A stretch of DNA of 64,000 nt from an uncultured bacterium (lineage in GTDB: Bacteria; Bipolaricaulota; Bipolaricaulia; UBA7950; UBA9294), in contig CBDUVB010000002.1 of NCBI GenBank assembly GCA_965370555.1, forward strand, positions 39,467 to 103,466, in the 5' to 3' direction. Below are positions 5,910 through 42,365 of the stretch, piece after piece. Every line of letters begins with the position of its first letter. The stretch's first letter is position 1. The notes beneath the pieces are model-generated. The model saw only the letters and a list, made by a program, of their open reading frames with translations, did no database searches and had not been told where the DNA came from. The position numbers and the translations under genes were made by a program.

Positions 5910-6074
5910 TAGCGACTCTCTGCAAAGAGAGAAGCGGACTGAAGCTCCACCATAAGGGCGGGAAGATCAAGCTCGTCGCAGAACAAGGTGTGCCGTTCGG
6001 TCTTTGGATCCCCGGTGAGAATCGCCGAAGATCAGGATAAGTGGCTGTTCAGGCATGGGTCCTCGCTGAGCAGT
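5910..6074. repeat. Copy 2 (partial) of the holA 5-prime direct repeat; includes holA start-codon context and has an internal deletion of about 40 bp
   Basis: Aligns to 2384-2578: gcaaagagagaagcggactgaagctccaccataagggcgggaagatcaagctcgtcgcagaacaaggtgtgccgttcgg...gaatcgccgaagatcagg...gttcaggcat; minus-strand ORF 5759..5986 translates FCDELDLPALMVELQSASLFAESR, the same as HolA residues about 38-61. Confidence 0.8.
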
Positions 6075-9635: not shown

Positions 9636-9753
9636 GGGAAGATCAAGCTCGTCGCCGAACAAGGTGTGTCGTTCGGCCTTTGCGTCCCCTTCGAGAATCC
9701 TCGTGTGGCGAGCCTGCAGGGCCTGCTCGCAGCGGAAGGGGTCGCCAAAAGGC
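9636..9753. repeat. Copy 3 (partial) of the holA 5-prime direct repeat
   Basis: About 105 bp near-identical to 2414-2523 (ggaagatcaagctcgtcgccgaacaaggtgtgtcgttcggcctttgcgtccccttcgagaatcctcgtgtggcgagcctgcagggcctgctcgcagcggaa), then decays. Confidence 0.8.
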
Positions 9754-10865: not shown

Positions 10866-13586
10866 TTATTTTGAAGACACGTCAAGAGTTGTCACTGGAA
10901 CGCCGGTAATCTCCTGTATGCGTTTGACAATCCAGCCATGACATGTAAACAGAAACACTTGGCGCTTCTGCGCAATCTGGGAAAGGATCTGTACCCCTGT
11001 CTCGAAACGTTGATCATCCCAGTTAATCAGTACTTCATCTAATACAAGCGGTAGATGTTCATATGCTTCGTCTAGGTGGTCAATCACGGCCAGTCTAAAC
11101 GCAAGGAAGATCTGATCAAGTGTCCCGCCACTTAACGGAAAAGCAATTGGACGATCTTCTCCTGATTTGCTGATCACTGCCAACCGTTCTTCTTCATCTT
11201 CCAGTGTGATGATGCGAGTGTAGCGCCCACTGGTTATCGTGTTTAAATACTCACCGGCCCGCTTCAGTACATCAGGTTGGTGTTCTTCACGAAACTGCCG
11301 ATCAGCTTCCCTTAGTAAAGAAGCAAGCAGCATCAAGCGGTCATGCCGAGTACACACGTCCTCTATCTGTTCCTCGATGCTTTCTATCTTGCCGTCGAAC
11401 TCGCCCACTGAAACATCTCCACGAGCATTATCTATCTCGTTTTGCAATCTGGTTCCTTCTTCTCGCAGACGCTGCAGCTCTCCATCCTTGTCTTGGAGTT
11501 TGTCCCGCCTGATACGTGACTTCTCCACTTCCTCCTGATCTAGGACCCAGGCATCTACGTTGCCTTCTTCTAGATGGTGAATCTCTTCTTGCAATTCAGG
11601 CAGATCTGGATGATCCATCTCTAGTTGTTCTTCGATGTTCTGAATCTTTCTCAGGATCCCTTGCAGTTCAGCGGCTCTTTTCAAGGTCTCATTCGGTGGC
11701 AAATTTTCCACCACGACTTGAGTGACATGCTTCATGAACTCATCACGTGCTCCCGTAGCATCCTGTAGGGCTTTCTTTACCTCCTCTAGTTTTCCATTCA
11801 TATCCTTAATATGCCTAGCAGCCTGGTTGAAGTCTCGCTGGTGATCCTTAGCCGTATCAAGGCGGTCTTCCAGACGATTTACTGCCTCTAGGCTCGCTTT
11901 CTGCTCTCCAAATTCTCCCACCAATTCTTGCAATTCGTGTTGAGCGGCCTCCCAGTTTTCTTGTTGCTCTTGGAGGTGATAAGTCTTTTGCTTCCTTTCG
12001 CCGACATATAACCGCAGGCCCTCTACCGCCTGGTAGAGGAAGAGGTCGGGTTTCTCGATCAAGGCTGCGGCAAGAGGTAGGTCTTTCAGGATCTCTTTTA
12101 CCTCCTCGCGTGCCTCGTTCCGTGCACCATCTGCTTCCCGCTTCTGTTTTTGCAGTCGCTCAATCTCGTCCTGGCGCTGAGCTTCCAGGAGGCTGCGCTG
12201 ATGTCGGATGAAGAAGTTAAACACCAAAGCCGTAATGCCGATCAGTGTCAGGGTAGATCCAGGTGTGATAGCGGCGTGGGAGAACCAGATCCCGAGCAAG
12301 ACTGCCAGGAGACCTACTGTGATAGCTCCCACTGTAGCCCAGCCGGGCAGTTCGCCGATCATCCGTACGGGAGCAACACTTTCGATTGCAGTTTGCCGCT
12401 GTTCGACTGCCTTCTCCTTCTCCTGGAAGTTGTTGGTTCTTGTCTTTAACTCAGGGAGTACTATCCCTTCAACGGTTAGAGAAAAATCATCACGCCAGGG
12501 CTCGGCAAGGATACTCGCAGCAGTCGATTCCAGAGATCGCTGGAGCTCATCCACATCACGCTCGATCTTCTCTATGTTATGTTGTTCCTGCTCATGAGCG
12601 GTCACACGATGTGCCCAACTATCAATCTTTTCTGCACGTTCCAGAATAGAGCGATCTTCCTCGATGAATCGTTCCTGAACATCAAGTTGTGTCTTCCCTT
12701 CTTCTTTCAGTCGTTTGATAGCTTGCTCTGCGTCTTCGACATGGTCGCACAAGTGCCTGTATTCAGTCTCCAAGCCATCTGGTAGGCGTTGGGTTGCCTC
12801 AATATCAGGGATATTAGAGTGCCACTTTCCAATCTTATCCAGCCACTTTTTTAGTGGAAGCAGCAGATCGGCCTTGCGTAACTGCGCACTCAGTTTGGCT
12901 AGCTCTTCTTCAAGAGTACTTATCAGTTTTTCGACTTCGTGAGTCCTTTTCGCTTTATTGCGTATGGCCTGATCTCTTTCCACGGTCTGCTTACGGTCTT
13001 TCCTAGCGTCCTTCAATTTGCCTCTAAGATCTACGTACAGGGGCTTCCCCCTCTTATCGTTCCGCCAAAGTTTTTGGGCCTGCTTCTCAAGGTCAGCGAT
13101 GACCTGCCGTGTCGGGTTGAGTAGCTCGGCACCAAGCCCACTAAGCAATAGGTCGTCGATCTGCTTTCTCTGTGCTTTCTCAAGCGAGCGCATGTTCGCC
13201 TGGGTGAGCGCGTATAGCGCTTTGTAGAGAGTCATACTCACATGCTGCACGAAGGGGAGGTCGTGGTTGGCTAGCTCCTGGGCGCGGTCATCGCGGATGA
13301 GACGCCCCTGGGGAGTACTTGTCAGCTTCCTCCATACCTCTGCCCGAGTGCCATCCTGAAGAGTTAGCACTGCTCGTAGTTCGGGGTATCTATCCACATG
13401 CCATGGGTGGTAGGGAAAATCCGACACGGGATAAAAACCGTACAAAAGGGTGGTCAGAAGGTTGAATAGCGTGGACTTCCCGGCTTCATTCAAGCCGTGG
13501 ACAATCACCAAGTTTTCGGATACGTTCGGAATGCTGCGGTCGACAAAACAACCAAATGAGCCGATCTCTAGCTTCTCAACTCTCAT
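10866..13586 (-). CDS. YhaN/SbcE-like AAA ATPase (SbcC-related, long coiled coil, internal 2-TM hairpin)
   Basis: 906 aa; N-terminal Walker A GLNEAGKST, extensive heptad-rich middle, hydrophobic hairpin WATVGAITVGLLAVLLGIWF...LTLIGITALVFNFFI, C-terminal Walker B PLVLDEVLINWDD. Confidence 0.75.
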   Translation of the reverse strand: MRVEKLEIGSFGCFVDRSIPNVSENLVIVHGLNEAGKSTLFNLLTTLLYGFYPVSDFPYHPWHVDRYPELRAVLTLQDGTRAEVWRKLTSTPQGRLIRDDRAQELANHDLPFVQHVSMTLYKALYALTQANMRSLEKAQRKQIDDLLLSGLGAELLNPTRQVIADLEKQAQKLWRNDKRGKPLYVDLRGKLKDARKDRKQTVERDQAIRNKAKRTHEVEKLISTLEEELAKLSAQLRKADLLLPLKKWLDKIGKWHSNIPDIEATQRLPDGLETEYRHLCDHVEDAEQAIKRLKEEGKTQLDVQERFIEEDRSILERAEKIDSWAHRVTAHEQEQHNIEKIERDVDELQRSLESTAASILAEPWRDDFSLTVEGIVLPELKTRTNNFQEKEKAVEQRQTAIESVAPVRMIGELPGWATVGAITVGLLAVLLGIWFSHAAITPGSTLTLIGITALVFNFFIRHQRSLLEAQRQDEIERLQKQKREADGARNEAREEVKEILKDLPLAAALIEKPDLFLYQAVEGLRLYVGERKQKTYHLQEQQENWEAAQHELQELVGEFGEQKASLEAVNRLEDRLDTAKDHQRDFNQAARHIKDMNGKLEEVKKALQDATGARDEFMKHVTQVVVENLPPNETLKRAAELQGILRKIQNIEEQLEMDHPDLPELQEEIHHLEEGNVDAWVLDQEEVEKSRIRRDKLQDKDGELQRLREEGTRLQNEIDNARGDVSVGEFDGKIESIEEQIEDVCTRHDRLMLLASLLREADRQFREEHQPDVLKRAGEYLNTITSGRYTRIITLEDEEERLAVISKSGEDRPIAFPLSGGTLDQIFLAFRLAVIDHLDEAYEHLPLVLDEVLINWDDQRFETGVQILSQIAQKRQVFLFTCHGWIVKRIQEITGVPVTTLDVSSK

Positions 13587-14824
13587 CGCTTCTGCTCCGG
13601 TACCAACCGGGATGCAGCCTCGCGACCCATATTATTTGCTAACCCCCGTAAGTAATGCCGCACGTCTTCGGTGTTCGAACGGGCCAAGTCCTTGGGGGTA
13701 ATGCAATCTAATAATTCGTCGTCCGTGGATAACCTCTCAAGCAACTCCAGGGCTTCGCCTAACACCGTTGGACTACCTACATAACTTTCCACGTCCACCG
13801 GTCGCACAAGAGAACGGGGCCGTATCTCAAGCCAGGTAATATTCGTTTCGTTCTGAACGATCTCCTCTAAATCTTGCAAACTTTCCGGTTTGTTTATTTC
13901 ATCAGCCAGGGAAGATTCCCCCGTTAGGGTGACACGCACTAAGTGCTCTCGACCGTCATCTAGATCTATCTTTTGGCGAAGGCGTGCCGCCAACTCTGCT
14001 GTTAACTCGGCATCTGTGCATGCGTTCTCAGGGCATGCGAGTTCAACGTGATCCCATACGAGAGGTGAAAGGGGTATGAACTCTGGCTCAATCACGTCCC
14101 TCTTCGATACTTCCACGTAGAGCGCGCCTTTGACACCAGTCTCTCTAGGGTTTCGGCCCTGTATATTGCCGGGGTACCAAGCCGGTAGACTATCAGATAT
14201 CCGTTGGCGTACGTGAATATGCCCTAGCGCCCAGTAATCATAGCCTGGTAATTCAAGATCTTTTTCGGTACATGGAGCATAGCGCTCATGTTGATCTGCG
14301 CTCCTCGCATTGACAACTTGTGTGTGGAGCATTGCCACATGTGGTAAATCATCTTTGGCTTTTTTGTACCGAGTAGCCAAATTGCTACCTTCGCGCGTTG
14401 AGCTGTGTCCAGCAGCAGTTAACCACCCTATCTGCTGTCCTTTACGGTCAACGATTGGGACGGTTTCAGGAGTAGTACTGGTGAATAGATGCACATTACT
14501 CGGCCATTCGAGTTTCTGTGCACGGTAGTTCGCACGGCCGGGATCATGGTTCCCAGTTGCGTAGAAAACTGGGATTCGCGCATTCTGCAGTTTGCACATC
14601 TCAGTCAAGAGAAACCTCTCCGTCGTAAACGACAGTAACTCATTGTCAAACAAATCACCCGCTATGAGAAACGCATGAACATCTCGTTCGATAGCTGCAT
14701 CCACCGCTCCTTTGAACGCCTCTCGACAGGCATTCCGCAATTTTCGGCGCAATAATTCATCACGTCCGTAAAAAGGGGTATCTAGATGAACGTCAGCAAT
14801 ATGCAAAAGGCGTAACGCTTCCAC
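13583..14824 (-). CDS. YhaO/SbcF-like calcineurin-type metallophosphoesterase (SbcD-related nuclease)
   Basis: 413 aa; LHIADVHLD...FLIAGDLFD...ATGNHD...GHIH phosphoesterase motifs; 4-bp overlap with YhaN-like gene. Confidence 0.8.
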   Translation of the reverse strand: MEALRLLHIADVHLDTPFYGRDELLRRKLRNACREAFKGAVDAAIERDVHAFLIAGDLFDNELLSFTTERFLLTEMCKLQNARIPVFYATGNHDPGRANYRAQKLEWPSNVHLFTSTTPETVPIVDRKGQQIGWLTAAGHSSTREGSNLATRYKKAKDDLPHVAMLHTQVVNARSADQHERYAPCTEKDLELPGYDYWALGHIHVRQRISDSLPAWYPGNIQGRNPRETGVKGALYVEVSKRDVIEPEFIPLSPLVWDHVELACPENACTDAELTAELAARLRQKIDLDDGREHLVRVTLTGESSLADEINKPESLQDLEEIVQNETNITWLEIRPRSLVRPVDVESYVGSPTVLGEALELLERLSTDDELLDCITPKDLARSNTEDVRHYLRGLANNMGREAASRLVPEQKR

Positions 14825-14939
14825 GTTTTTCCTCCTCCCTTCACAGGAATTCTAACGCAAACAGGTTATAGGAGCCAGTCAAAAGATATGGAGATGCCAA
14901 GCGAAAGGCAATAAGCGTGTTCAAACTGCACACACCTAC

Positions 14940-15443
14940 ATGGAGCTTTCCCGCAAAGCTTACTGGGATCAGTTCCCACGAACCCCGGAGATGGTCATCA
15001 TGTTCGTTCCAAGTGAAGCCAGTCTCTCCGCCGCCTTTGAGCAGGATCCGGATCTATTGGAGTTCGGCGTGGGTAAACGTGTCCTGATTACTACACCCCT
15101 CATCCTGCTCGCCCTACTGCGCGCTGTGGCTTACGGTTGGCAGCAGCAGCAGATCGCGGAGAACGCCCGTGAGATCGCAGCGCAGGGTAAGGACTTATAC
15201 GATCGAGTGATCCGATTCCTCGAACTATTCCAGAGGACGGGCAAAGGCTTAGGCCAGGCGGTCGAGGCGTACGACAGCGCGATCGGATCACTAGAAAGGA
15301 GACTCCTTCCTTCAGCTAGGCGATTCAAAGAACTGAACGCATCAACCAAAGATCTCCCCGAGCTAACGCCAGTGAACCGTCAGCCCCGCCCACTCTCCTC
15401 CCCTGAGTCCTCCGAGACGGATGTCTCCGAGGCGGTGGAATAG
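14940..15443 (+). pseudogene. rmuC: DNA recombination protein RmuC, C-terminal fragment only (5-prime truncated)
   Basis: 167 aa matching the RmuC C-terminal domain (MVIMFVPSEASLSAAFEQDPDLLEFGVGKRVLITTPLILLALLRAVAYGWQQ); the N-terminal two-thirds of a normal 450-aa RmuC is absent, and the yhaO-like gene start lies 116 bp upstream on the other strand. Confidence 0.6.
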
Positions 15444-15639
15444 GTTTTCACCGAACGGAAAAGGAGGCCAAAAAGAGGCCCCCTTTTCGCTACTACCGGT
15501 AGTAGAAAGGCGGTCTACGCGATAGCGGAGATAACAATAAGCGTATGCCTACCTATCACGCGACCGTCGTTGTCCCTGAAGGAATGGACTTCAGTCACCC
15601 TCGGCGGTTAGAACCCGTACTGTTTGGCCTCTTGTCGCC

Positions 15640-15860
15640 TTTGGGAGAGGCACAGGCATTTCTCTCGCCCGTTCGTTGTACTCACTCAAGCCGCCAAGAT
15701 CGCCAAGAAGAGCCAGTTTTATGTCTACTGCCTGTAGTTCTTTCCTTTCTTCTTGCTGTTCTCTGCGCCTTTGCGTCTTTGCGAGAGGCACAGGCTTTTT
15801 CTCTCGCCCGTTCGTTGTGCTCACTCAAGCCACAAAGGTGTCGCGACACCAAGATCGCCA
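15640..15860 (-). repeat. Two tandem copies of an 85-bp hairpin-containing intergenic repeat (same family as 35150-35345, opposite orientation)
   Basis: ttgggagaggcacaggcatttctctcgcccgttcgttgtactcactcaagcc at 15646-15700 and ttgcgagaggcacaggctttttctctcgcccgttcgttgtgctcactcaagcc at 15784-15845; reverse complement matches ggcttgagtgagtgtaacgaacgggcgagagaaaaggc...ctctcgcaaagacgcagag at 35260-35330. Confidence 0.75.
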
Positions 15861-15872
15861 AGGAGGGCAGCG

Positions 15873-17222
15873 TTATTTTAGCTCTGTCACGAGGCGATCG
15901 AGGTTCATATCCCGCGATCCCTTGACGAGGATAATGTTGCGCTTCCCTTTCAAAGCTTTACGGACGGAATCGGCGAGGCCCTCTTGGCTGGAGAAGATGA
16001 AGGTTCCAGTGGGGGTATCCTTGACGGCTCCTCGAGCCGCCTCTGTGGCGAGATCACCTACCGGAAAGATCGGCCCGATTCCAAGGCGGAGGGCAAGATC
16101 GATCATCTCATGATGGAATCGCGGGGAATCCTCACCCAGGTCAAGCATATTCCCGAAGACGAACCCCCGCCGGTCCGTGGGTAGATCGAGCGAGGCAAGG
16201 GTGAAGAGGGCCGCCCGCGTGGAATCGGGGTTGGCGTTGTAGGTGTCATCGAGGAGGTGTCCAAATGGAGCGGGAAGGAGGTTCAAGCGGTGGAGAAACG
16301 GCTTGAATGTTCTCATTCGGTTCTCGATCGTCTCTTTTGCGAGGCCTAGTTCGAGAGCGCAGGCGACGGCGGATAAGATGTTAGTGGCGTTATGCCGCCC
16401 GAGGAGGTTCGTTTCCAGCCGAAGGGGTGGATTTTCCGTCTCGATGATGAGGCCGGGGCGCGCTCCGACGACCTTTCCATGTACCATCCCACCTTGAAGG
16501 CCAACTGAGATGATCTCTCCCGGCCACCCATCTGCGAACCGGGAGAGCTCCGGGCAGTCGAGGTTGATGATCGCGCTCCCCTGTGACGGGAGTGCACGAA
16601 CGAGTTCCCACTTCTCCTGTGCGATCGTCTCTATACTTCCAAACCCGGAGAGGTGGCCGTGTCCGACCATCGTAAGGATAGCGATCTGCGGGGCGAGGAG
16701 CGCTGCGAGGGGGGCGATCTCTCCTGGCGCGCTTGCCCCCAACTCGAAGATCCCGACCTGTGCGTTGGACGGCATCGCTAGTAACGCGAGGGGGAGACCG
16801 ATCTCGGTGTTGTAGTTGTGCGGGGCGGAGAAGACACGAAGGTCTCTCTCCAGTATATGGGCGAGGATGGCCTTAGTCGTCGTCTTTCCACAGGTGCCGG
16901 TAATCCCGACGAACGTCGCGGGCAACTCGCTCCGCCAAGCAGAGGCAAGGGAGGAGAGTGCGACTTGAGTGTCCTCGACCACGATCAGGTTGCGCCCGTT
17001 CTCGGGGATCGTTCCGGTCTCCGAGACGAGCGCTCCGCAGGCCCCACGCATGAACGCCTCTTCCAGGAAGGCGTGTCCGTCGGTACGTGCCCCTTTGAGC
17101 GCGACAAAGAGATCCCCTTTTTGAACGAGACGGGAATCGTGGATCGCCCGTAGGGGCGTCTCCTCTCTCCCCCTTAGGAGATGCCCGTTCAGCATTCTCG
17201 CGATCTCGCCGATGGAGAACAC
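15873..17222 (-). CDS. murF: UDP-N-acetylmuramoyl-tripeptide--D-alanyl-D-alanine ligase (MurF)
   Basis: 449 aa; Mur ligase P-loop GITGTCGKTTTK, N-terminal MurF-specific domain, C-terminal Mur ligase domain. Confidence 0.85.
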   Translation of the reverse strand: MFSIGEIARMLNGHLLRGREETPLRAIHDSRLVQKGDLFVALKGARTDGHAFLEEAFMRGACGALVSETGTIPENGRNLIVVEDTQVALSSLASAWRSELPATFVGITGTCGKTTTKAILAHILERDLRVFSAPHNYNTEIGLPLALLAMPSNAQVGIFELGASAPGEIAPLAALLAPQIAILTMVGHGHLSGFGSIETIAQEKWELVRALPSQGSAIINLDCPELSRFADGWPGEIISVGLQGGMVHGKVVGARPGLIIETENPPLRLETNLLGRHNATNILSAVACALELGLAKETIENRMRTFKPFLHRLNLLPAPFGHLLDDTYNANPDSTRAALFTLASLDLPTDRRGFVFGNMLDLGEDSPRFHHEMIDLALRLGIGPIFPVGDLATEAARGAVKDTPTGTFIFSSQEGLADSVRKALKGKRNIILVKGSRDMNLDRLVTELK

Positions 17223-29078: not shown

Positions 29079-30716
29079 ATGTATCCGACGTTAAATGAGA
29101 TCTTTGATCGCTCCGTTGCCTCGCACAAGGAAGCGATCGCTCTGCGTATGTTGATTCCAAAAGAACGGAAGAAGGGGCGCGGAATCCAGTTGGTCCTAAA
29201 CGAGATTTCCTACAACCGCCTGGGCGAAATGGTCGCCCGCCTCGCTGGTGCCCTTGACAAGCTCGGGGTGAAGAAAGGGGACAAGGTTGCGCTTATCTCC
29301 AAGCCGCGCGTCGCGTGGGCAACCGCCTTCTTCGCGATCCTCCGCTGCGGGGCGGCTGTCGTTCCACTCAACCCCGAGCTACAGCAGAAGGAGATCGAAC
29401 GGATTCTCACCGAGGCTGAGGTAAAGAGCGTCATCATCTCCGGGCTGAAGAGCGACGATCTCCTGGCGATAAAGGAACAATCTCTCTCTCACCTCACCCT
29501 GATCTCGATGGACCATCCCGAGAAAGAGGGAGTCCTCTTCCTCGATGCTCTCCTCCTCGGACGCAAGCCGCTCCCCACGGTGGAGGTGAGTCCGGACGAC
29601 CTCGCCATCCTCATGTACACCTCGGGGACGACAGGAAACGCTAAAGGGGCGATGCTCCTCCACCGCAACATAAGTTCAAACGTCATTACCGCCGTTAAAA
29701 CCGTCGATTTAGTCTCGAGCGACACGTTCCTCACAATCGTCCCATGGCACCATATCTACGGACTGACAGTCACTCTCATTACGCCGATCCTCGCTGGAGC
29801 GACGACGTCCTATGCCCCAGTCGACCGCAATTTGGCCCAGGTGATGTTGAAGGCACGTCCGACGATCCTCCTCGGAGTTCCCAAGCTGTACAACGTCCTC
29901 TACGGAAAGGTGATGACCTCGATCGAGGGCAGCTTATTGAAGAAGTTAATCTACAAACTCTCCCCTACCCTGATGGGCAAACTAGTCACGAAGAAACTAT
30001 TTGGGAAGGACTTCCGTTTCTTCACCTCGGGCGGCGCACCGCTGAGCCCCGAAATCGAGACCGGTTTCCGGAAGATGGGGATTGGGATCATGGAGGGGTA
30101 CGGCCTTACCGAGACTTCTCCGGTCCTCACTATGAGCGAAGCATTCGCCAAGGAACCGGGGATGACCGCCTTCGATGAGGTCAGTATACGCATCGACCGC
30201 CCAGATGAGAAAGGGATCGGCGAGGTAGTTGTGAAAGGTCCAAATATCATGGCCGGATATTACAAGAACCCCGAAGCGACCAACGAGGTGATCGATACAG
30301 AGGGGTGGTTCCACACCGGCGACCTTGGCTCTTTCAAAGGAGATAGGCTCCTCCTCTCCGGACGCGCGAAGAACGTGATCGTCCTCGACACGGGAGAGAA
30401 CGTCTACCCCGAAGAGGTCGAGTTTGAGCTTGTGGCCATTCTCGCGATCGAGGAGATCATGGTCTACCAGGGGGAACGCCAGGGGAGCCCAGTTGTATCA
30501 GCGATGATCTACCCAAATTGGACGATCCTCAAGGGTCTGGAGATCACCACCCCCGAGGCTGCGATCGACCATATTTGGGAGGAAGTCAAGGAGAAGAACG
30601 AAAACATCGCTATGTTCAAACGGATCAAGAGCAAGGACCTCATCGCCCTCGTCGACGAGCCCTTCGAGAAGAGCGTCAAGCTCGATATCAAGCGGTATAA
30701 ATACAGCAAGGTATAA
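29079..30716 (+). CDS. AMP-dependent acyl-CoA synthetase/ligase (long-chain fatty acid--CoA ligase-like)
   Basis: 545 aa; AMP-binding motif MYTSGTTGNAKGAML, GYGLTE, and C-terminal lysine region. Confidence 0.85.
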   Translation: MYPTLNEIFDRSVASHKEAIALRMLIPKERKKGRGIQLVLNEISYNRLGEMVARLAGALDKLGVKKGDKVALISKPRVAWATAFFAILRCGAAVVPLNPELQQKEIERILTEAEVKSVIISGLKSDDLLAIKEQSLSHLTLISMDHPEKEGVLFLDALLLGRKPLPTVEVSPDDLAILMYTSGTTGNAKGAMLLHRNISSNVITAVKTVDLVSSDTFLTIVPWHHIYGLTVTLITPILAGATTSYAPVDRNLAQVMLKARPTILLGVPKLYNVLYGKVMTSIEGSLLKKLIYKLSPTLMGKLVTKKLFGKDFRFFTSGGAPLSPEIETGFRKMGIGIMEGYGLTETSPVLTMSEAFAKEPGMTAFDEVSIRIDRPDEKGIGEVVVKGPNIMAGYYKNPEATNEVIDTEGWFHTGDLGSFKGDRLLLSGRAKNVIVLDTGENVYPEEVEFELVAILAIEEIMVYQGERQGSPVVSAMIYPNWTILKGLEITTPEAAIDHIWEEVKEKNENIAMFKRIKSKDLIALVDEPFEKSVKLDIKRYKYSKV

Positions 30717-30721
30717 GATAC

Positions 30722-30991
30722 TCAACGGATGGAGAACCCATCTATAGGATCTGTTTCCTCCCAATTGATATCGACACTCGCCACCTCGGCTCGAACTGGG
30801 CCGAGGTGACTCCATTCAACGAGGGCACGGACCGCTTCTGCATCCCCCTGCGCCACGATCTCCACTCGCCCATCGGGAAGGTTTCTCACCCACCCGACAA
30901 GGCCCAGGGATCGCGCCTCCCGTTGCGTATCCACGCGGAAGAAGACCCCCTGGACACGGCCGGAAACGAACAGATGCACTCGCTCAGTCAT
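30722..30991 (-). CDS. acyP: Acylphosphatase
   Basis: 89 aa; [11 protein letters not shown] and [12 protein letters not shown] signatures. Confidence 0.85.
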
Positions 30992-31061
30992 TATTCACCG
31001 TGGAGAGGGGAAGATTAAGATTGAGTGATTTAACTTACCGATCATCCGATCTCCTGATCAT

Positions 31062-32372
31062 TCAATCTTCCGATCTCTCAATTTCCTTTGCCCTGTTGAT
31101 CCTTTCCAGCCTCTTGGCCAGATCTTTCTCCAGACCCCGACCGGTCGGTCGATAGTAGCGCCGTCCTTTTAGTGAAGGAGGGAGACACTTCATTGAGGCG
31201 ACACCCGTCTCGAAGTCATGCGCGTATTGGTAGCCCTTGCCATAGCCAAGGCCCTTCATCAACTTTGTCGGGGCGTTCCGCAGGTGAAGGGGAACAGGCT
31301 CGTTCGGCTGGCTTTGCACATCCTTGCGCGCCTCCCCGAATCCGACGTAGAGGGCGTTGCTCTTCGGCGCACAGGCAAGGTAGACCGCAGCCTGCGCTAA
31401 GGCGAGGTCGCACTCGGGTAAGCCGATTGCATCCACCGCCTCCCGCGCGGCAAGGGCCGTATTCAGCGCCTGTGGATCAGCAAGGCCGACATCCTCCGAA
31501 GCGATGCGGATCAACCGTCGTGCGAGAAAGCGCGGATCCTCCCCCGCCTCGATCATCCGCGCCAACCAATAGAGCGCGGCATCAGGGTCGGAGTTACGGA
31601 TTGACTTATGGAGTGCCGAGATCAGGTTGTAGTGCTCCTCCCCGGCCCGGTCGTAGTTGAGGCCCTTTCGTTGCACCGCCCGCTCGATAAGTGGAACGTC
31701 TATTGTTGTCCCCGTCGCGATCGCACTCGCAAGCTCAAGGGTGGTGAGCGCACGGCGGGCATCCCCATCGGAGAGAGCGACAAGGGCGCTTTCCGCCTCA
31801 TTCGTCAGCGTGTATCGTTCGCTTAGGCCCCGCTCCTCCTGAACGGCACGCTGCAGCACCGCGCGCATCGCTCCTGGAGGGAGAGGGGAGAAGCAGAAGA
31901 GCTGGCAGCGCGACAGAAGGGCCGCATTGAGCGCGAACGAGGGATTCTGCGTCGTCGCGCCGATGAAGATGACACTCCCTGCTTCGAGGTAGGAGAGGAG
32001 GACATCCTGCTGTGAGCGGGTGAAGCGATGGATCTCATCGAGGAAGAGGAGGTCGCGCTTCCCCTCAAGCTCGTGGCGCTCCCGCGAGCGTTCGAGAGCG
32101 GCTTTGACCTCCTTCACCCCGGAGAGGGCGGCCGAGAGGTGGACAAAATGGGCGTGTGATCGACGGGCAATGATCTTACCGACCGTGGTCTTCCCGGTTC
32201 CTGGCGGCCCCCAGAAGAGGAACGAGCGATAGGCCTCCCTCTCAATTAATGTGCGAAGGGATGCCCCCTTCCCCAGGATTGTTCCCTGACCCTCGATCTC
32301 ATCGAGGTCGGCCGGCCTCATCCTCTCCGCTAGGGGAGCCTCCCCCGGCTCACCAAACTGAAGGCGGTTCAT
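31062..32372 (-). CDS. rarA: Replication-associated recombination protein A (MgsA/RarA AAA ATPase)
   Basis: 436 aa; Walker A GPPGTGKTT, Walker B LFLDEIHRF, C-terminal MgsA helical domain. Confidence 0.9.
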   Translation of the reverse strand: MNRLQFGEPGEAPLAERMRPADLDEIEGQGTILGKGASLRTLIEREAYRSFLFWGPPGTGKTTVGKIIARRSHAHFVHLSAALSGVKEVKAALERSRERHELEGKRDLLFLDEIHRFTRSQQDVLLSYLEAGSVIFIGATTQNPSFALNAALLSRCQLFCFSPLPPGAMRAVLQRAVQEERGLSERYTLTNEAESALVALSDGDARRALTTLELASAIATGTTIDVPLIERAVQRKGLNYDRAGEEHYNLISALHKSIRNSDPDAALYWLARMIEAGEDPRFLARRLIRIASEDVGLADPQALNTALAAREAVDAIGLPECDLALAQAAVYLACAPKSNALYVGFGEARKDVQSQPNEPVPLHLRNAPTKLMKGLGYGKGYQYAHDFETGVASMKCLPPSLKGRRYYRPTGRGLEKDLAKRLERINRAKEIERSED

Positions 32373-32902
32373 GCTTCACCAGCGCGATTCGTAGCACGTT
32401 CAAGGAGATCGATGTAAGCTCCCTGAACCAGATAGGCTTCTTCAATACCTAACTTCGCCATGATCTCCCGTGCGACCTTCTCCCCGCGTTCCACGGACTC
32501 TCCCTGATCGAGCACAACCTCAAGCTCCAGGAATGATCCTAGCCCTTCGACCGCGTCCAGGTGTATTCTCGTCTTTCCCACTCGGTAGAGCAATCTGCTC
32601 TTCCGCACGATTCCGCGTAGCCCTAAAGCGTTTGCAAGGACAGCATGGAGCGCAGCTGGATTCGTCGTCTCGGCGACCAGGTAGTGCGATGGCTTCGGTT
32701 CGTAGGTATCCTCTCGATCGTAATAGATCAGTTCTCCTCGCTCGGGAGAGAGGGTACGCAGCTTCAGCCGCCCCTTCGGCACGGGAAAGAACGTATCTTC
32801 CTGATGAATCTCCTCGCAAGGGGCATCGCTGATCGCCTCGATACGGTCGCGCAAGGCATCGACGTCCTTGACCCGTGCCTTGATCTCGACATTCATCGCC
32901 AT
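32369..32902 (-). CDS. CYTH-domain protein (class IV adenylate cyclase / CyaB-like triphosphate tunnel enzyme)
   Basis: Start placed at ATG 32902 (MAMNVEIKARV, RBS AGGAG 6 nt upstream); EIK...E motif, then RLKLRTLSPERGELIYYDRED; the 100-aa N-terminal extension of the ORF-track call is low-complexity and unsupported. Confidence 0.65.
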   Translation of the reverse strand: MAMNVEIKARVKDVDALRDRIEAISDAPCEEIHQEDTFFPVPKGRLKLRTLSPERGELIYYDREDTYEPKPSHYLVAETTNPAALHAVLANALGLRGIVRKSRLLYRVGKTRIHLDAVEGLGSFLELEVVLDQGESVERGEKVAREIMAKLGIEEAYLVQGAYIDLLERATNRAGEA

Positions 32903-32925
32903 CGGCCACTCCTGTCCGCATCCAC

Positions 32926-34021
32926 TTAGCCCTTGCCTTTGCTGCCCTGCTCCAGGTACGCCTCGATGAACATGGTGATATCCCCATCGAGGACCGCGCT
33001 GACATTCCCTGTCTCCATCCCCGTTCGGTGATCCTTCACCATCTGGTAGGGATGAAGGACGTACGAGCGGATCTGGCTTCCCCACTCGATCTCTTTCAGG
33101 GTTCCTTGTATCTCCTCGATCTTCTTTGCTTCCTGCTCGCGTAAGAGCTCTCCCAGGCGGGCACGCAGGACCCGCATCGCTGTCTCCTTGTTCTGTCGTT
33201 GACTCCGTTCGTTCTGGCAAGAGACGACGACCTTCGTCGGAAGATGGGTGATCCGCACTGCCGAATCGGTGACGTTAACGTGCTGTCCTCCGGCACCGGA
33301 CGAACGGTAGGTATCGATACGGAGGTCTTTGGAATCGATCTCCAGCTCCTGTTCCTCGGTCACCGGAACGACGCTAACCGCAGTAAACGAGGTGTGTCGA
33401 CGGTGTGCCGAGTCAAACGGGGAAATTCGCACCAGGCGGTGCACCCCCTTTTCTCCCTTGAGCTTGCCGTAGGCGTAGTGCCCCTTGATCTCCAAGGTAG
33501 CGCTGCGAATCCCCGCCTCATCGCCCGAACTCACATCGAGGAGCGAAGTCTTATAGCCCGCTTGCTCGCAGTAGCGTCCGTACATGCGCAGGAGCATCTC
33601 AGCCCAGTCCTGGGAGTCGGTCCCCCCGGCACCGGCGTTAATCGAGAGGTAGCAATCCGCAAGGTCATAAGGGTCGGAGAAGGTGAGTTCGATCCTCAAG
33701 GCGCGCACCTTCTCCTCAAGGGAAGAGAGACGTGGTAAGAGGGCTTTTAACTCCTCCTCGTCAGTCATCTCCACGGCCATCTGATGGAGAACCTCCACCT
33801 CCTCGACACCCTCTGTCAGGGCACGGTAACGGGAGAGTATGGAGCGATTACGCTCCAGCTGGCGGCTCGCCTCGGTGGCACGCTCCCGATCCTCCCAGAA
33901 GCCCGGGGATGCCATCTCTTTCTCTAGGTCTGAAATCTCCGCTTCGATCCCAGCCGGGTCAAAGGTGATCACCGATCCTCGCGAGGACACTGCGCAGGTT
34001 TGAAAGTCTCTCTTCGTCCAT
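32926..34021 (-). CDS. prfB: Peptide chain release factor 2 with programmed +1 ribosomal frameshift
   Basis: Frame-0 ORF ATG(34021) MDEERLSNLRSVLARIGDHL stops at UGA 33959-33961 within CAC CTT TGA CCC; +1 frame continues DPAGIEAE... through SPF and GGQ motifs (RF2); SD-like AGGGGGAT precedes the ATG. Confidence 0.9.
33958..33964 (-). other. prfB: RF2 autoregulatory +1 frameshift site CUU UGA C
   Basis: Heptamer CTTTGAC at codon 21 of the frame-0 ORF; downstream frame encodes the rest of RF2. Confidence 0.85.
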
Positions 34022-34382
34022 TGATCCCCCTATTGGTTCGCGTTCTGATATCTTCTGCCACCGCTATTTGCACGAGTCAAGCATAACTGGATGCCCGATT
34101 GACACCAACTCCGCAATCAAACAGCCATCATCCCCTTTATAATCGGCCGCGCTCTCTACCTCAAGGAAAGAAGTCCTTCATGTTAATGCCCTGCCACCTC
34201 TCTGGAGTAGGGAAGTTCCACGGCGCAGCCAAACAGACTGAATGGGACGCAAGAATCACCACCCCGCTCTGGCGCGTCCGACTTGCACCGCACTAACTGC
34301 ACAGATACTATCAGAGTTGCAACGAGGATATGGTAGTGTATGGGGCGCCGGAGGGAGGTTGTCGCTACGTCATAATTGATGT

Positions 34383-34757
34383 ATGATGTATTCACGAAGC
34401 CATTGGAAGTTGGTCTACTACACCGATTCGGAAGGACGATGCCCTATTGAGGAGTTCATCGATGTGCTACCATCTGCAACCGAGAAGGGGCGGATGATGG
34501 CGCTGCTGCACTTACTTGAGGAAGAGGGGATTCACCTGCACCGGCCCTACGCAGATCTGCTGGAGGATGGGATCCATGAGTTACGAACGAAGGTTTCTAA
34601 GCTGCGGTATCGCGTTTTCTACTTCTTCTGGCAGGGCAATAGAATCGTCATCACGCACGGTATTACAAAGACCACCAAGCGCGTGCCACCCCGTGAGGTG
34701 AGACGGGCGAAGGCCTATCGAGACGACTGGCTGGCACGACACAGGAGTAAGATATGA
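34383..34757 (+). CDS. higB: Type II toxin, HigB/RelE-superfamily (Gp49-like, COG4679)
   Basis: 124 aa; WKLVYYTDSEGRCPIEEFIDVL...YRVFYFFWQGNRIVITHG pattern of Gp49/HigB toxins; precedes and overlaps the HTH antitoxin gene by 4 bp (toxin-first order typical of higBA). Confidence 0.6.
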   Translation: MMYSRSHWKLVYYTDSEGRCPIEEFIDVLPSATEKGRMMALLHLLEEEGIHLHRPYADLLEDGIHELRTKVSKLRYRVFYFFWQGNRIVITHGITKTTKRVPPREVRRAKAYRDDWLARHRSKI

Positions 34758-35107
34758 GGACGTTTAGAGACCATCTGGAGCGGGTGCTCAAAGACAAAGA
34801 GGTTGCGCGTAGCTACGAAGGGGAGTACAAGAAGCTGCGGATTGCCTACGAGGTTCACGCTGCCAGAATACACCTGGGCTGGACACAACAGCAGCTCGCC
34901 AAACGAGCAGGAGTGACTCAGCAGATGATCTCCCGCATCGAGAATGCAACCGTCCCCAACATCTCGCTGAAGACCCTCTCTTTTGTTGGGAAGGCTCTTG
35001 GCTTGGATGTGGGGTTTGTCCATCCAGCCGCACCATTCGGACCAACCACGGTCAAAAGGGGATTTGCCGAGAAGAAGATTGCAAAGAAGATCTCTGCGCA
35101 GCTGTAG
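34754..35107 (+). CDS. higA: HTH XRE-family antitoxin (HigA-like)
   Basis: 117 aa; helix-turn-helix LGWTQQQLAKRAGVTQQMISRIE. Confidence 0.65.
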   Translation: MRTFRDHLERVLKDKEVARSYEGEYKKLRIAYEVHAARIHLGWTQQQLAKRAGVTQQMISRIENATVPNISLKTLSFVGKALGLDVGFVHPAAPFGPTTVKRGFAEKKIAKKISAQL

Positions 35108-35149
35108 GCGTCCTGCTCATTTCTGCAACAGAGGGGCGCACATAGCAGC

Positions 35150-35345
35150 AATAGTTTGTGCCTCTCGCAAAGACGCAGAGAACGCCAAGAAAAACGTAAA
35201 TAGACAAAGAGAAAAAGATGTTTGGAACTCAAGAGTTATGGCCTTTCTTAGCAATCTTTGCGGCTTGAGTGAGTGTAACGAACGGGCGAGAGAAAAGGCT
35301 TATGACTCTCGCAAAGACGCAGAGAACGCAAAGGAAAAGCGGTAA
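35150..35345 (+). repeat. Intergenic repeat family: partial unit (35157-35196) plus full 85-bp unit (35260-35343) with GCGAGAG/CTCTCGC hairpin
   Basis: tgtgcctctcgcaaagacgcagagaacgccaag and ggcttgagtgagtgtaacgaacgggcgagagaaaaggcttatgactctcgcaaagacgcagagaacgcaaag; reverse-complement homologs at 15640-15860. Confidence 0.75.
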
Positions 35346-35496
35346 AATGTGGAAAGGAATAAGAACAAAAAGCATTTCTTGGCGACCCCGTACCTTACCT
35401 GGAGCGTGAGGAGCCAGAAGAACAGGAGAGTGTTAGCCCGACCAAGCCCCGACATCTGCCTGAGAGACGCCACCCGAAACTGAAGGAGGTACAGCC

Positions 35497-35769
35497 ATGA
35501 ACGAAGAGAAGATCCGAAGAGAGGAGTTTGTCATCAGCGGCGAGAAGCTTGTCTCGACGGTCAAGGAGCTGGTACGGCAAGGGAACATCCGCCGCGTCAC
35601 CATCAAGAATAAGGAAGGAAAGACCCTGATCGAAATCCCGCTGACATTCGGAGTGGTCGGAGCGCTCTTCTTGCCCACCCTGGCCGCCATCGGCGCAATC
35701 GCAGCACTTGTGACCGAGTGCACGATCGTCGTGGAGAAAGTTGAGGAGGATGAGAAGGACGAGGAGTGA
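35497..35769 (+). CDS. DUF4342-family small protein (paralog 1)
   Basis: 90 aa; EEKIRREEFVISGEKLVSTVKELVRQGNIRRVTIKNKEGKTLIEIPLTFGVVGALFLPTLAAIGAIAALVTECTIVVEK matches the conserved DUF4342 profile; RBS GGAGG upstream. Confidence 0.6.
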   Translation: MNEEKIRREEFVISGEKLVSTVKELVRQGNIRRVTIKNKEGKTLIEIPLTFGVVGALFLPTLAAIGAIAALVTECTIVVEKVEEDEKDEE

Positions 35770-35881
35770 AGCATAAGAAACACACTTGACAAAGTCGAGG
35801 CGAAATGCTTTCCTTAGAGAAGCTTAAGAAAGGGATCAAGTAGAATCTGGGAACCCTTTCATACAATACAGGAGGTGCACG

Positions 35882-36085
35882 ATGTGCAGTTATTTCGCGA
35901 TACTGGCGGCGATACCTGGTTTCTTTTTGAGCTCTTTCTTTCTCATGCTCTTCTCCAGGGTTATCGGCCCCCACTTCAATCAGCAACCGTTGGACTACAC
36001 GATGGCGATGTTGATCACCATCGCCCTGTGGGTGACCGTGGCGCCACTGGTGACAGCACGGCGTCGGAGAAGCTCTAAGGATTAG
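35882..36085 (+). CDS. Hypothetical small membrane protein (67 aa, 2 TM)
   Basis: RBS AGGAGG 6 nt upstream of ATG 35882; hydrophobic segments ILAAIPGFFLSSFFLMLF and MAMLITIALWVTVAPLV; lies between the two DUF4342 paralogs. Confidence 0.35.
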   Translation: MCSYFAILAAIPGFFLSSFFLMLFSRVIGPHFNQQPLDYTMAMLITIALWVTVAPLVTARRRRSSKD

Positions 36086-36536
36086 CCCGATTGGCTTAGT
36101 AAGAGCAGTCTATCACCGGGGAGCAGGATAGGAACAGAGACCTTGTGTCCCGCCCCCGGTGATGACGTCCGGCCGTAACCTCGTTTAGGTCTCTCGCAAC
36201 CGCCATTGAGGTGCACCGCTGGCTAGGACCAGGATTTGCCATTGTAAAGCCATATCTGAGAGCGATTGGGAAGGAGCACGGACTGCTTTCGAACTTCGCA
36301 AAGCCAACCCCAGAGGTAAAGCGGGTAATTCAGCGAGCCGTTTCTTCCCCGGTTTCCTAATGGCTCCGAGGGCTGTGGGTCAGCGGTTGAACCGAAGTCA
36401 GACTTGTCTGTACCCAGTCCTTCCAGGTTACCCACACCTGTTTACAGTAGGCAGGCCGAATAGCGAAGAAGCTTTTTGGGGAAATTGCTTCCGAACGAGC
36501 TGACTATGCCGTTCATCGACAGAAAGGAGACTCAAC

Positions 36537-36812
36537 ATGGATGAGGAGAAGATCCGAAGAGAGGAGTTCGTCATCAGCGGCGAGAAGCTGGTTTCCACGG
36601 TCAAGGAACTGGTGCGGCAAGGGAACATCCGCCGTGTCACTATCAAGAACAAAGAGGGGAAGACCCTGATCGAGATTCCACTAACATTCGGCGTGGTCGG
36701 AGCGCTCTTCTTGCCCACCCTGGCCGCTATCAGCGCCGTCGCAGCGCTTGTTACCGAGTGCATGATCGTTGTGGAGAAGGTTGAGGATGAGGATGAACCA
36801 TTTCAGGAATAG
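36537..36812 (+). CDS. DUF4342-family small protein (paralog 2, about 93% identical to paralog 1)
   Basis: 91 aa; identical to paralog 1 except a few substitutions and C-terminal acidic tail; RBS AAGGAG upstream. Confidence 0.6.
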   Translation: MDEEKIRREEFVISGEKLVSTVKELVRQGNIRRVTIKNKEGKTLIEIPLTFGVVGALFLPTLAAISAVAALVTECMIVVEKVEDEDEPFQE

Positions 36813-38629: not shown

Positions 38630-38717
38630 CTAATTGAGCTTCTCTTTGAACCCAGCACTATTGCGAAAATGGTCATGGGATATCGTCTTTTGACCTCTCG
38701 TGATGCATTTCAACGGT

Positions 38718-38840
38718 TCACCAGAGCGTACTCACCGGCAGGGCATACAGATTTGAGCCGAAAGGAACGGGTTGATCGCCGGTAGAGAGAACGATCCCTC
38801 GTAGGAAGCGGTCACCCAACGAGTCACGGGATCTAAGGGG
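38718..38840 (-). pseudogene. 3-prime fragment (about 40 codons) of a third DUF4143 AAA ATPase paralog
   Basis: Translates ...SLGDRFLRGIVLSTGDQPVPFGSNLYALPVSTLW*, near-identical to the C-terminus of the 40783..42093 gene; about 150 bp nucleotide homology 38685-38840 vs 40786-40945 including the downstream UTR. Confidence 0.55.
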
Positions 38841-40782: not shown

Positions 40783-42093
40783 TCAGGTCTTGTCTTTTGA
40801 CTTCTCGTGACTCATTTCACTGCTTCGCCAAAGCGTAGTCACCGGCAAGGCATACAGATTTGAGCCGAAAGGAACGGGTTGATCACCGGTATAGAGAACG
40901 ATGCCGCGCAGGAAGCGGTCACCCAACAAGTCACTGAGGTACTTCAACCCCTTAAAGTCGCCACTCTTGACCGTTGATGAGGCCTTGACCTCAATCCCCA
41001 CGACCTTACCGGCAGGGTTCTCCAGCACTATGTCCACTTCCTGTCCTTTTCGCGTGCGAAAGTGGAAGAACTCGGGCTGAATCCCGCTCCAGCTAGCTTG
41101 CTTTCTTAGCTCCATGATGACGAAGTTCTCCAGCAGGGGACCAAAGGTATTTGGATCGGATTTGATCCGCTCTTCGTTCAACCCTGTTAGGTGGGCCAGC
41201 AAGCCGGTGTCATTCAGAGCTACCTTTCGTGAACGGATGAGCCTCTTGCCAAGGTTGGACGACCAAGCAGGAAGTGGCTGAAATAAGAAAGTCATTTTGA
41301 ACAACGCTATGTAACGCTTCGCGGTACTCTGTGGTAGGCCAAGGCTGTTGGCAAGTTCTGAGTAGTTCATCAGCGAGCTAGCGCGCGCTGCCAACAAGGA
41401 AAGCAGGCGGGGCATCATAGTGAGGTGTTCTATGTTCGCCAGGTCTCGAATCTCGCGTTGGACAATGGTGGTAACATACGAGCGGAACCAGGCACTGCGC
41501 CTGCTCACAGATGATTTTCCTACCATTTCAGGGTAACCACCGGTTAGTACACGTTTGATAAGCTCGTCTCTACTGAGATTACTAGCGGCAAATTGCGACA
41601 GTTTGCTAGCGAATATTCGATTTACGAAATCTTCCCTTTGCTTCTCTAGCTCACCTTGCGAAAAGGGCGAAAGAGTCAGGATTTCCATTCTGCCAGCGAG
41701 CGATTCCGATAGCTTAGGCAGGAGCAAAGGATTCGCCGAGCCAGTGAGCAAGAAGCTGCCGGGTACGCGGTTGCGATCGACTGCAGCCTTGATGGCTAAG
41801 AACAGCTCGGGAGCTCGTTGCACCTCATCGAGGACCACAGGACCATCAAAACCAGTCAAGAAACCCGTGGGATCACTGCGTGCAGCGGAAAGCACTGCGG
41901 CATCATCGAGGGTGATGTAGCGTGCCGGATGCGCTTCTCTTGCCAACCATTGCATTAATGTGCTCTTGCCCGTCTGCCTGGCACCGTTAAGCAAGACAAC
42001 GGGAGTATCCGACAGTGCTTCCAGGATAGCTGGCGTGATACTCCGTGGGATCATGAGAAGATTATAGCAACCGACAGGGTGCATTTCAACCAC
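40783..42093 (-). CDS. AAA family ATPase (AAA_14 + DUF4143 architecture), paralog of 38955..40172
   Basis: 436 aa (GTG start; alternative ATG at about 42052 giving MIPRSITPA...); Walker A GARQTGKSTL, Walker B VVLDEVQRA. Confidence 0.75.
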   Translation of the reverse strand: MVEMHPVGCYNLLMIPRSITPAILEALSDTPVVLLNGARQTGKSTLMQWLAREAHPARYITLDDAAVLSAARSDPTGFLTGFDGPVVLDEVQRAPELFLAIKAAVDRNRVPGSFLLTGSANPLLLPKLSESLAGRMEILTLSPFSQGELEKQREDFVNRIFASKLSQFAASNLSRDELIKRVLTGGYPEMVGKSSVSRRSAWFRSYVTTIVQREIRDLANIEHLTMMPRLLSLLAARASSLMNYSELANSLGLPQSTAKRYIALFKMTFLFQPLPAWSSNLGKRLIRSRKVALNDTGLLAHLTGLNEERIKSDPNTFGPLLENFVIMELRKQASWSGIQPEFFHFRTRKGQEVDIVLENPAGKVVGIEVKASSTVKSGDFKGLKYLSDLLGDRFLRGIVLYTGDQPVPFGSNLYALPVTTLWRSSEMSHEKSKDKT

Positions 42094-42110: not shown

Positions 42111-42365
42111 ACCACTCAGTGGTTAATTCGCCCGAAAGGAAGAAGAGCTCGACACACACTATCAATTAGCTGGGTGAGACTCGTATCAACAGTGCCTTGC
42201 GGCAGAAGATCACTGTTCCGTCTTGTTTGCTACAGGGCAAACATCTCCTGGAGGACCAGGAGTGAACCTCCCCGCCTACAAGGCGGGGAGGTTCACTCCT
42301 TCTTCGCGGTATGCTTCTCTTGCAAGAGTAATTGACCAGCTACCTGTTTCGCCTATAATACTTTC

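Follow-up and report, generated by a model that had tools for sequence, protein, structure and literature searches.

The intergenic repeats at two sites of the window, by which we mean the whole 64,000-nucleotide stretch of DNA that was analyzed, belong to a previously undescribed, large family of short, non-coding, palindromic sequences. The family is modular, with two imperfect inverted arms of 9-mers and a set of optional modules; Bipolaricaulota genomes hold tens of its copies each, and copies also occur in other phyla. The element behaves as a miniature mobile element that is gained and lost between strains, and we consider it fairly probable that each unit is a copy of a miniature inverted-repeat element of ∼65 to 125 nt that is dispersed, non-coding, and non-autonomous. 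The most likely origin, which we put forward tentatively from the resemblance of the ends, would be an ISL3-derived MITE; the description as a non-autonomous dispersed palindromic repeat is better supported than this origin.

Direct reading and repeat detection placed the same repeat at 15.6-15.9 kb on the minus strand (site A) and at 35.15-35.42 kb on the plus strand (site B). The opposite orientation of the two loci, which the sequence-only reading had reported, was confirmed by the inverted pairs I1 (15769-15837/35256-35324, 69 nt, 87%), I2 (62 nt, 85%), and I3 (34 nt, 85%). Direct pairs were also detected within site A (D8 and D12, spacings of 139 and 138) and within site B (D6, spacing of 144). 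The copies and their parts, with the basis of each placement, are as follows.

15626-15868, minus strand: site A, two full units.
15744-15868, minus strand: full unit A1 (exact string placement, inverted and direct repeat pairs).
15837-15850: 14-nt mini-palindrome GGTGTCGCGACACC, held in the left arm of A1.
15801-15828: core block of A1, TTGAGTGAGCACAACGAACGG-GCGAGAG.
15781-15807: hairpin of A1, GCGAGAG-13 nt-CTCTCGC; the A1 right arm consists of CGCAAAG-type 9-mers.
15626-15714, minus strand: A2, an 89-nt solo-type element (exact string placement, pair I2).
35155-35415, plus strand: site B, one full unit, a right-arm fragment, and a coreless copy.
35155-35194, plus strand: B1, a right-arm-only fragment with the 3' half of the loop and CTCTCGCAAAGACGCAGAGAACGCC (E = 8.5e-6).
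35240-35340, plus strand: full unit B2, GGCCTTTCTTAGCAATCTTTGCGGC-core-hairpin-right arm (pairs I1 and I2).
35265-35292 and 35286-35312: core and hairpin of B2, respectively.
35375-35415, plus strand: B3, a coreless derivative (type-2 tail consensus).

A2 is laid out as GGCTCTTCTTGGCGATCTTGGCGGC-TTGAGTGAGTACAACGAACGG-GCGAGAG-loop-CTCTCCC-AAAGGCGACAAGAGGCC, and its left end opens with the ISL3-like GGCTCTTC. B3 joins a left-arm remnant, TTTCTTGGCGAC, to CCCGTAC and a type-2 right end, CTTACCTGGAGCGTGAGGAGCC. The units span 89 to 125 nt in the window and not the 85 nt first assigned to them. The GCGAGAG/CTCTCGC stem of 7 bp that had been described is intact in A1 and B2, but carries one mismatch in A2 (CTCTCCC); at site B, the right-arm fragment B1 and the coreless B3 had been missed. 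A profile search of the window returned no copy beyond those at sites A and B.

Alignment of the copies revealed a common architecture. In the left arm, 9-mers follow one another as (GGCTCTTC)TTGGCG-ATCTTGGCG-KC, and the right arm, AAAGACGC-AAAGAACGC...AAGAGGCC, mirrors this arm, the 9-mers being of the CTTGGCG.. type on the left and the ..CGCAAAG type on the right. An optional 18-20-nt block, AGTGAGTGAAACGAACGG (aligned form TTGAGTGAGTGMAACGAACGG), lies 3' of the left arm, and 3' of this block stand GCGAGAG, the A-rich loop AAAAAGCTTGTGC, and then CTCTCGC. A short subfamily without the block forms a plain imperfect palindrome of ∼65 nt (for example, L056 5031-5096; L numbers denote the collected loci). 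The 14-nt mini-palindrome GGTRTCGCGAYACC is an optional left-arm insert that A1 shares with copies from other MAGs. The units hold no conserved ORF; their lengths across the family range from ∼65 to 125 nt, many copies sit within mosaics that include other short repeats, and truncated and mosaic copies are frequent. At least four right-end types were distinguished, each with a sharp end followed by unique sequence.

Right end type 1: as in the window.
Right end type 2: ...CTTGCCTGGAGTGTGAGGAGCC, which is also the end of B3.
Right end type 3: a 59-nt tail ending ...CCCACTCGAAACGACGAAGAGCC.
Right end type 4: ∼138 nt or more.

Contrary to the earlier statement that MITE terminal inverted repeats are lacking, the arms are imperfect inverted repeats: 81.5% of the arm and stem positions pair (74% of the arm cells and 95% of the inner-stem cells), versus 32-50% when the partner is slid, which indicates that the palindrome is real.

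The size and host range of the family were assessed by scanning one genome per species (185,579 species, 596 Gb) with the pattern TTGAGTGAG-NNN-AACGAACGGGCGAGAG, which contains 25 fixed bases. This core pattern gave 91 exact matches in 82 stretches from 21 assemblies, far beyond the ∼0.001 matches that we calculate to be expected by chance, so that the window copies are by no means a local pair. Allowing up to five mismatches raised the number of copies to 114, and 126 profile matches were obtained. The hosts are mostly Ca. Bipolaricaulota/Acetothermia MAGs, with at least 24 stretches in a single MAG. Others are the isolate Pelovirga terrestris M08fum (four copies within 1.2 kb), one Desulfuromonadales MAG, one Trichlorobacter MAG, a closed 8.6-Mb Victivallales chromosome, and the unclassified 3.7-Mb chromosome OW818642, where five of the seven copies form a near-perfect tandem array with a period of 154-155 nt. 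Single matches on short contigs binned as Lentisphaerales, Anaerolineales, Ignavibacteria, and Thermotogae may reflect mis-binning. A contig end lay within 500 nt of 36 of the 91 exact cores (40%; 10.8 expected); this excess argues that the repeats break short-read assemblies and that true copy numbers are higher. No match to the core was found in IMG/VR, a blastn search of the unit against the PLSDB plasmids returned none, and full-text literature searches with the core, its reverse complement, the arm 9-mers, and the type-3 end yielded no relevant paper.

The gene surroundings of the two window sites were examined by domain matching, with the following flanking features.

14940-15443, plus strand: RmuC fragment at site A, covering profile positions 156-289 of 291 only.
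15873-17222, minus strand: Mur ligase at site A.
34383-35107, plus strand: Gp49/HigB-like gene and HTH gene at site B.
Other flank of site B: two DUF4342 paralogues.

These matches bear out the flanks that had been named without database searches (truncated rmuC/murF and higBA/DUF4342), and both sites are indeed intergenic and lie at core/accessory boundaries, with GC contents of 0.56-0.59 in the core and 0.50-0.54 in the accessory DNA. Each site stands just 3' of a stop codon and is co-oriented with its upstream gene (murF and higA). The window has the appearance of Bipolaricaulota DNA: it carries Wood-Ljungdahl genes and, over 1.3 kb, shares 85-88% of its nucleotides with Bipolaricaulota MAG269; a tRNA/tmRNA scan of it found none, and exact-protein look-ups showed that MurF, the RmuC fragment, the S55 peptidase, and TrkA are not on record.

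Several other repeats and structured sequences were encountered in the window. The tandem DUF4342 paralogues (35496-35753 and 36536-36793) are 88% identical over 258 nt, and two DUF4143 AAA-ATPase paralogues have in common a 143-nt stretch of 89% identity (38685-38827 and 40792-40934); this accessory region is partly a product of local duplication. A perfect 20 + 20-nt palindrome with a 3-nt loop, AGGAGTGAACCTCCCCGCCT/AGGCGGGGAGGTTCACTCCT, lies at 42258-42300 between the start of the acetyl-CoA synthase cluster and a DUF4143 gene. A 114-nt stretch from the 5' end of a DNA polymerase III delta (holA-like) gene (2422-2573) recurs at 9636-9749 with 96% identity and, more weakly, at 5960-6073 (62%, with an adjoining 47 nt matching at 79%). 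Enclosed by the holA-like repeats are ∼7 kb of accessory DNA that encodes an AbiEi antitoxin, an AAA_21/AbiEii-like ATPase, a glycosyltransferase, and DUF4062; the arrangement suggests that one or two islands were inserted here and duplicated their target, and no integrase was seen. Between the site A repeat and the rmuC fragment, an intergenic block of ∼110 nt (15490-15600) includes a hairpin, CTGAAGGAATGGACTTCAG, and a palindrome, CTACTACCGGTAGTAG. Rfam returned no match to the block, which is kept in all of the close relatives L086-L089, with or without the repeat; it may encode a small RNA or serve as a binding site for a protein.

Comparison with close relatives showed that whole units come and go at both sites. 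At site B, the JGI contig L083 (98.5% identity over 5.8 kb, same gene order, colinear over 29358-36200) is without exactly 144 nt (∼35162-35305), corresponding to one unit and bounded by the 24-nt direct repeat CTCTCGCAAAGACGCAGAGAACGC; B1 forms this direct repeat, across which the 144-nt unit is present or absent. The ENA contig L084, which is 99.6% identical to the window, has the unit. At site A, L086, L087, and L089 (94-97% nucleotide identity) possess no copy, the murF stop being followed by the conserved block GGGTGACTGAAGTCC... with nothing of the repeat between, and L088 (88%) possesses one copy, orthologous to A2, where the window has two; A1 is missing at the orthologous site in all four relatives. 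Among the collected loci, a search for further filled and empty site pairs recovered only the two window sites and an insertion in L100. Some copies at orthologous sites are conserved across species in L008, L029, and L035, which argues that mobility is not high. In L088 (3880-3950), the murF frame runs into the element and ends at a TGA inside GAGTGAG, giving MurF an altered C-terminus (...IELSASRPLRLE*), so the element can rewrite gene ends. The insertion in L100 (330-478; LZCG01000139) is 149 nt long, is unrelated to the family, and stands between the trkH and S55-peptidase orthologues.

These relatives also bear on the suggestion, raised in the sequence-only reading, that the two sites are inverted recombination sites bounding a 19.5-kb invertible or recently rearranged segment. 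It is true that the sites are inverted and 19.4 kb apart, that both lie at shifts of GC and gene content, and that the site A area is rearranged, with a truncated rmuC and, in L088, an inversion of 13437-15385. However, relatives that have fewer copies or none retain the murF/rmuC' and higA/DUF4342 junctions unaltered (L086, L087, and L089 for the former; L083, in which the colinear region includes the same junction, for the latter), so the junctions were not made by the repeats. The interval consists of housekeeping genes (TrkAH, XseA, thioredoxin reductase, RF1, MgsA, and others) and holds no recombinase or invertase gene, the L088 breakpoint is not in the repeat, and, since each genome holds tens of family copies, any two sites have an even chance of lying in opposite orientation; GC skew gave no information on inversion. 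We conclude that this reading, which we rate as extremely improbable, has already been largely refuted. As for the rearrangement in L088, it inverts the sbcC'-sbcD-rmuC' segment (L088 4112-6060 versus window 13437-15385) with a breakpoint near the palindrome CTACTACCGGTAGTAG (∼15490), outside the repeat, and the rmuC fragment in L087 and L089 diverges after ∼130 nt; the rmuC/sbcCD neighborhood is a rearrangement hot spot independent of the repeat.

Whether the units act as RNA, as regulatory hairpins, or as DNA is addressed by folding, motif scans, and gene context. A small structured RNA family, comprising sRNA paralogues or a cis-regulatory leader, had been among the initial suggestions and is very unlikely in our judgment. 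It could appeal to the 25-28-nt block that is identical across phyla, to a hairpin that is kept with one compensatory case (GCGCGAG/CTCGCGC in L036 and L052), and to the position of some copies just 5' of start codons (L036, L032, L056, and L058), but the block owes its conservation partly to ascertainment by the search pattern, the core being variable in unselected copies. Two of the checks that had been proposed, an Rfam search and folding with covariation, failed to favor it. For the whole window, Rfam gave no match at gathering score, and at E ≤ 10 there was none at site A and only a chance lncRNA match at site B. RNAalifold, applied to 30 type-1 copies, kept only the inner 6-bp stem with nearly invariant pairs (covariation term of +0.04), and pairs with changes on both sides numbered 7 in the full palindrome versus 6.5 in shuffles. 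Scans of the units detected no sigma-70-like promoter and, on either strand, no intrinsic terminator (a GC-rich hairpin with a T-run 3' of it), and we therefore rejected this identity for the units. Orientation to genes was random: on the basis of crude ORF calls, the upstream gene was on the same strand in 48 cases and on the opposite strand in 35, the downstream gene in 43 and 50, respectively, and all four gene arrangements occur. Together with the frequency of truncated and mosaic copies, these results favor a DNA-level repeat. The sole hint of a strand-specific constraint is that, on the forward strand, G.T mismatches modestly outnumber A.C mismatches (50 versus 27, counted over cells that are not independent).

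REP/BIME and ERIC elements are thought to act through effects on mRNA 3' ends, read-through, or nucleoid proteins, and the copies studied here might similarly have been exapted, persisting because, as part of the transcript of the upstream gene, they stabilize mRNA 3' ends or attenuate read-through, or because they bind a nucleoid protein. This explanation, which is compatible with a mobile origin, would suit the position of the window sites immediately after murF and higA, the many copies that end 10-40 nt from a stop codon, the retained hairpin potential, and the insertions that are conserved between species; we nonetheless regard it as unlikely, given that there is no overall orientation bias and no T-run terminator, that single-strand fold z-scores are just -1.4 to -2.6 versus shuffles, and that close strains lack the copies. 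Somewhat less likely still is a REP/BIME-type element in the strict sense, whose hairpin and conserved 5' single-stranded block would be the substrate of a Y1 (HUH) REP-associated tyrosine transposase (RAYT) acting on ssDNA. The conserved block beside the hairpin is asymmetric, the clusters run in the same orientation with no target duplication seen, the G.T excess noted above points the same way, albeit from non-independent cells, and ORF 290-943 of L040, from a host MAG, is distantly RAYT-like (NF047646, E = 2e-12, under the curated cut-off). That gene, however, is flanked by a different repeat, GCTATCAGCAAACARCGCTCAGC..., the units measure 65-125 nt and not 20-40 nt, their clusters are direct and not inverted doublets, and the window has no RAYT. 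The family therefore does not fit the definition of REP/BIME with RAYT, which calls for a RAYT gene between its cognate REPs, palindromes of 20-40 nt, and inverted doublets. The low-complexity repeat GCTATCAGCAAACARCGCTCAGCRATCAGCTAT was noted on both sides of the RAYT-like gene (L040 215-257 and 1085-1125), and this motif often occurs just 5' of the left arm of the studied element at other loci. A further reading concerns the block GAGTGAG-N3-AACGAACGG beside the hairpin, which is letter-identical in Bipolaricaulota, Desulfuromonadales, Victivallales, and the unclassified chromosome. The cross-phylum identity of this 25-nt block could reflect selection on a function, and there is a slight chance that it is a functional single-stranded module, either the handle or guide of a mobile RNA or an ssDNA element served by a conserved protein; were that so, the arrays around small nuclease and toxin genes (GxxExxY, HigBA, and HEPN/MNT) would be parts of one system. 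In two unrelated genomes, a GxxExxY gene (PD-(D/E)XK_3, TIGR04256) was observed inside a unit cluster and co-oriented with it (L058 6100-7700 and L056 5031-5924); HigBA of the window is a further small toxin/defense gene pair near copies.

In kind, the family matches bacterial MITEs, ERIC elements, and REP/BIME mosaics, and the description "REP-like element" in the sequence-only reading came close to what we now consider the best one. Like ERIC/IRU of enterobacteria, the studied element is an imperfect palindrome of ∼100 nt in intergenic, probably transcribed DNA, with size variants arising from discrete internal insertions or deletions, presence or absence at orthologous sites, a sequence unusually conserved between distant hosts, and no known transposase. 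In contrast to ERIC/IRU, it has an unrelated sequence, resides in Bipolaricaulota, Desulfuromonadales, and Victivallales, and forms direct tandem clusters with several alternative right ends. REP/BIME (REPIN) sequences resemble it as palindromic intergenic units in mosaics with other short motifs, without target duplication, and in the presence of a RAYT-like gene in one host MAG, but the studied units are two to three times longer, their clusters are direct, and the RAYT-like gene is flanked by another repeat. CRISPR arrays combine 23-50-nt repeats with unique spacers of similar length and cas genes. The exclusion of a CRISPR repeat in the sequence-only reading is upheld by the period of 139-155 nt, the repeated inter-unit spacers, and the lack of cas domains in the window. 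Integron attC sites have R''/R' core sites (RYYYAAC...GTTRRRY), an integron integrase, and ORF-sized cassettes. An attC origin was rejected: inspection by eye showed no such core sites at the unit ends, the arrays lack ORFs, and the window contains no integrase. Observations of the same kind have been made for Geobacter/Pelobacter, in which palindromic and direct-repeat families of multicopy sequences occupy many intergenic regions, often several per region (PMC2996986, PMC3543383). One of the hosts here, Pelovirga, is a relative; neither the core nor its reverse complement is in the supplementary alignments of those two papers.

MITEs are recognized by a length below ∼300 bp, non-coding sequence, many dispersed copies, terminal inverted repeats, and target-site duplication. 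The studied family agrees in size, copy number, and inverted repeats. ISL3-family inverted repeats begin with GGCTCTTCG and the elements make 8-bp duplications (PMC6305408, PMC11448079); ISArsp7, for example, has GGCTCTTCGCGGTTGGTGGTGAAT as IRL and GGCTCTTCGCGTTTCGTGGTGAAT as IRR (PMC6305408), and a Microcystis ISL3 element and its derived MITE begin likewise with GGCTCTTCG (PMC11448079). This hallmark was found at two ends of the studied family, which were compared with only two published examples of ISL3 inverted repeats. Type-3 copies end, in reverse complement, with GGCTCTTCGTCGTTTCGAGTGGGTAAGG, and the alignment of the type-3 right end GGCTCTTCGTCGTTTCGAGTGG with the ISArsp7 IRR was equaled by none of 2000 shuffles; that of the A2 left end, GGCTCTTCTTGGCG..., was equaled by 7 of 2000. 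The core also aligns with the inner inverted repeat (TTG-GTG-GTGAAT versus TTGAGTGAGTGAAAC), and the other window ends, GGCCTTTC and GGCCTCTT, are more diverged. The family thus resembles ISL3-derived MITEs in its many short, non-coding, dispersed intergenic copies with imperfect terminal inverted repeats, in ends that begin with GGCTCTTC(G), and in its variable presence between strains. It differs from them in its arms expanded by reiterated 9-mers, its frequent tandem and mosaic arrangement, its occurrence in several phyla, and the lack of an observed 8-bp duplication or parent ISL3 copy. Only three copies allowed placement of both ends, and no target duplication flanks any of them; this is a weak test because most flanks are other repeats. 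No transposase ORF lay 3' of any of the 114 cores, no recurrent transposase was found near the copies or any among the main ORFs of the window, and an IMG/VR scan with an ISL3-IR-like pattern gave one chance match in coding DNA. The recurrent neighbors of the copies are small toxin and defense genes (GxxExxY, HepT/MNT, DUF4143, MazE, and DUF4160/DUF2442). If the ISL3 origin is correct, a full-length IS with the ends GGCTCTTC...GAGTGAGTGAAAC is expected.

Returning to the miniature mobile element as our preferred interpretation, we propose that a transposase acting in trans would have spread its copies; the ISL3 family is the most likely source of this enzyme, as suggested by ends that carry the GGCTCTTCG.. 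hallmark and align with published ISL3 inverted repeats. The conserved core may correspond to the inner segment of the left inverted repeat, at which the transposase would bind; as part of the repeat of a horizontally spreading IS family, it would be conserved and common across phyla. Once two copies are neighbors, homologous recombination or replication slippage between arms could add or remove whole units, which would account for the 144-nt indel at site B and for the tandem arrays elsewhere. The tandem arrays in L058, in which the 60-nt spacers are identical too, need duplication rather than transposition. Sites A and B would be independent insertions at core/accessory boundaries, and the elements would need no cellular function.

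For the Bipolaricaulota (Acetothermia), the family represents an undescribed, abundant repeat that breaks MAG assemblies, creates spurious ORFs, and can alter gene ends, as with murF in L088. Because copy number differs between near-identical strains, the repeat offers a ready strain-level marker, and its occurrence in unrelated anaerobes points to horizontal spread of the element or of its transposase between co-living phyla. The identical core in different phyla leaves a slight probability of a more functional role; the findings themselves need no new biology and are useful for the assembly and annotation of the host genomes.
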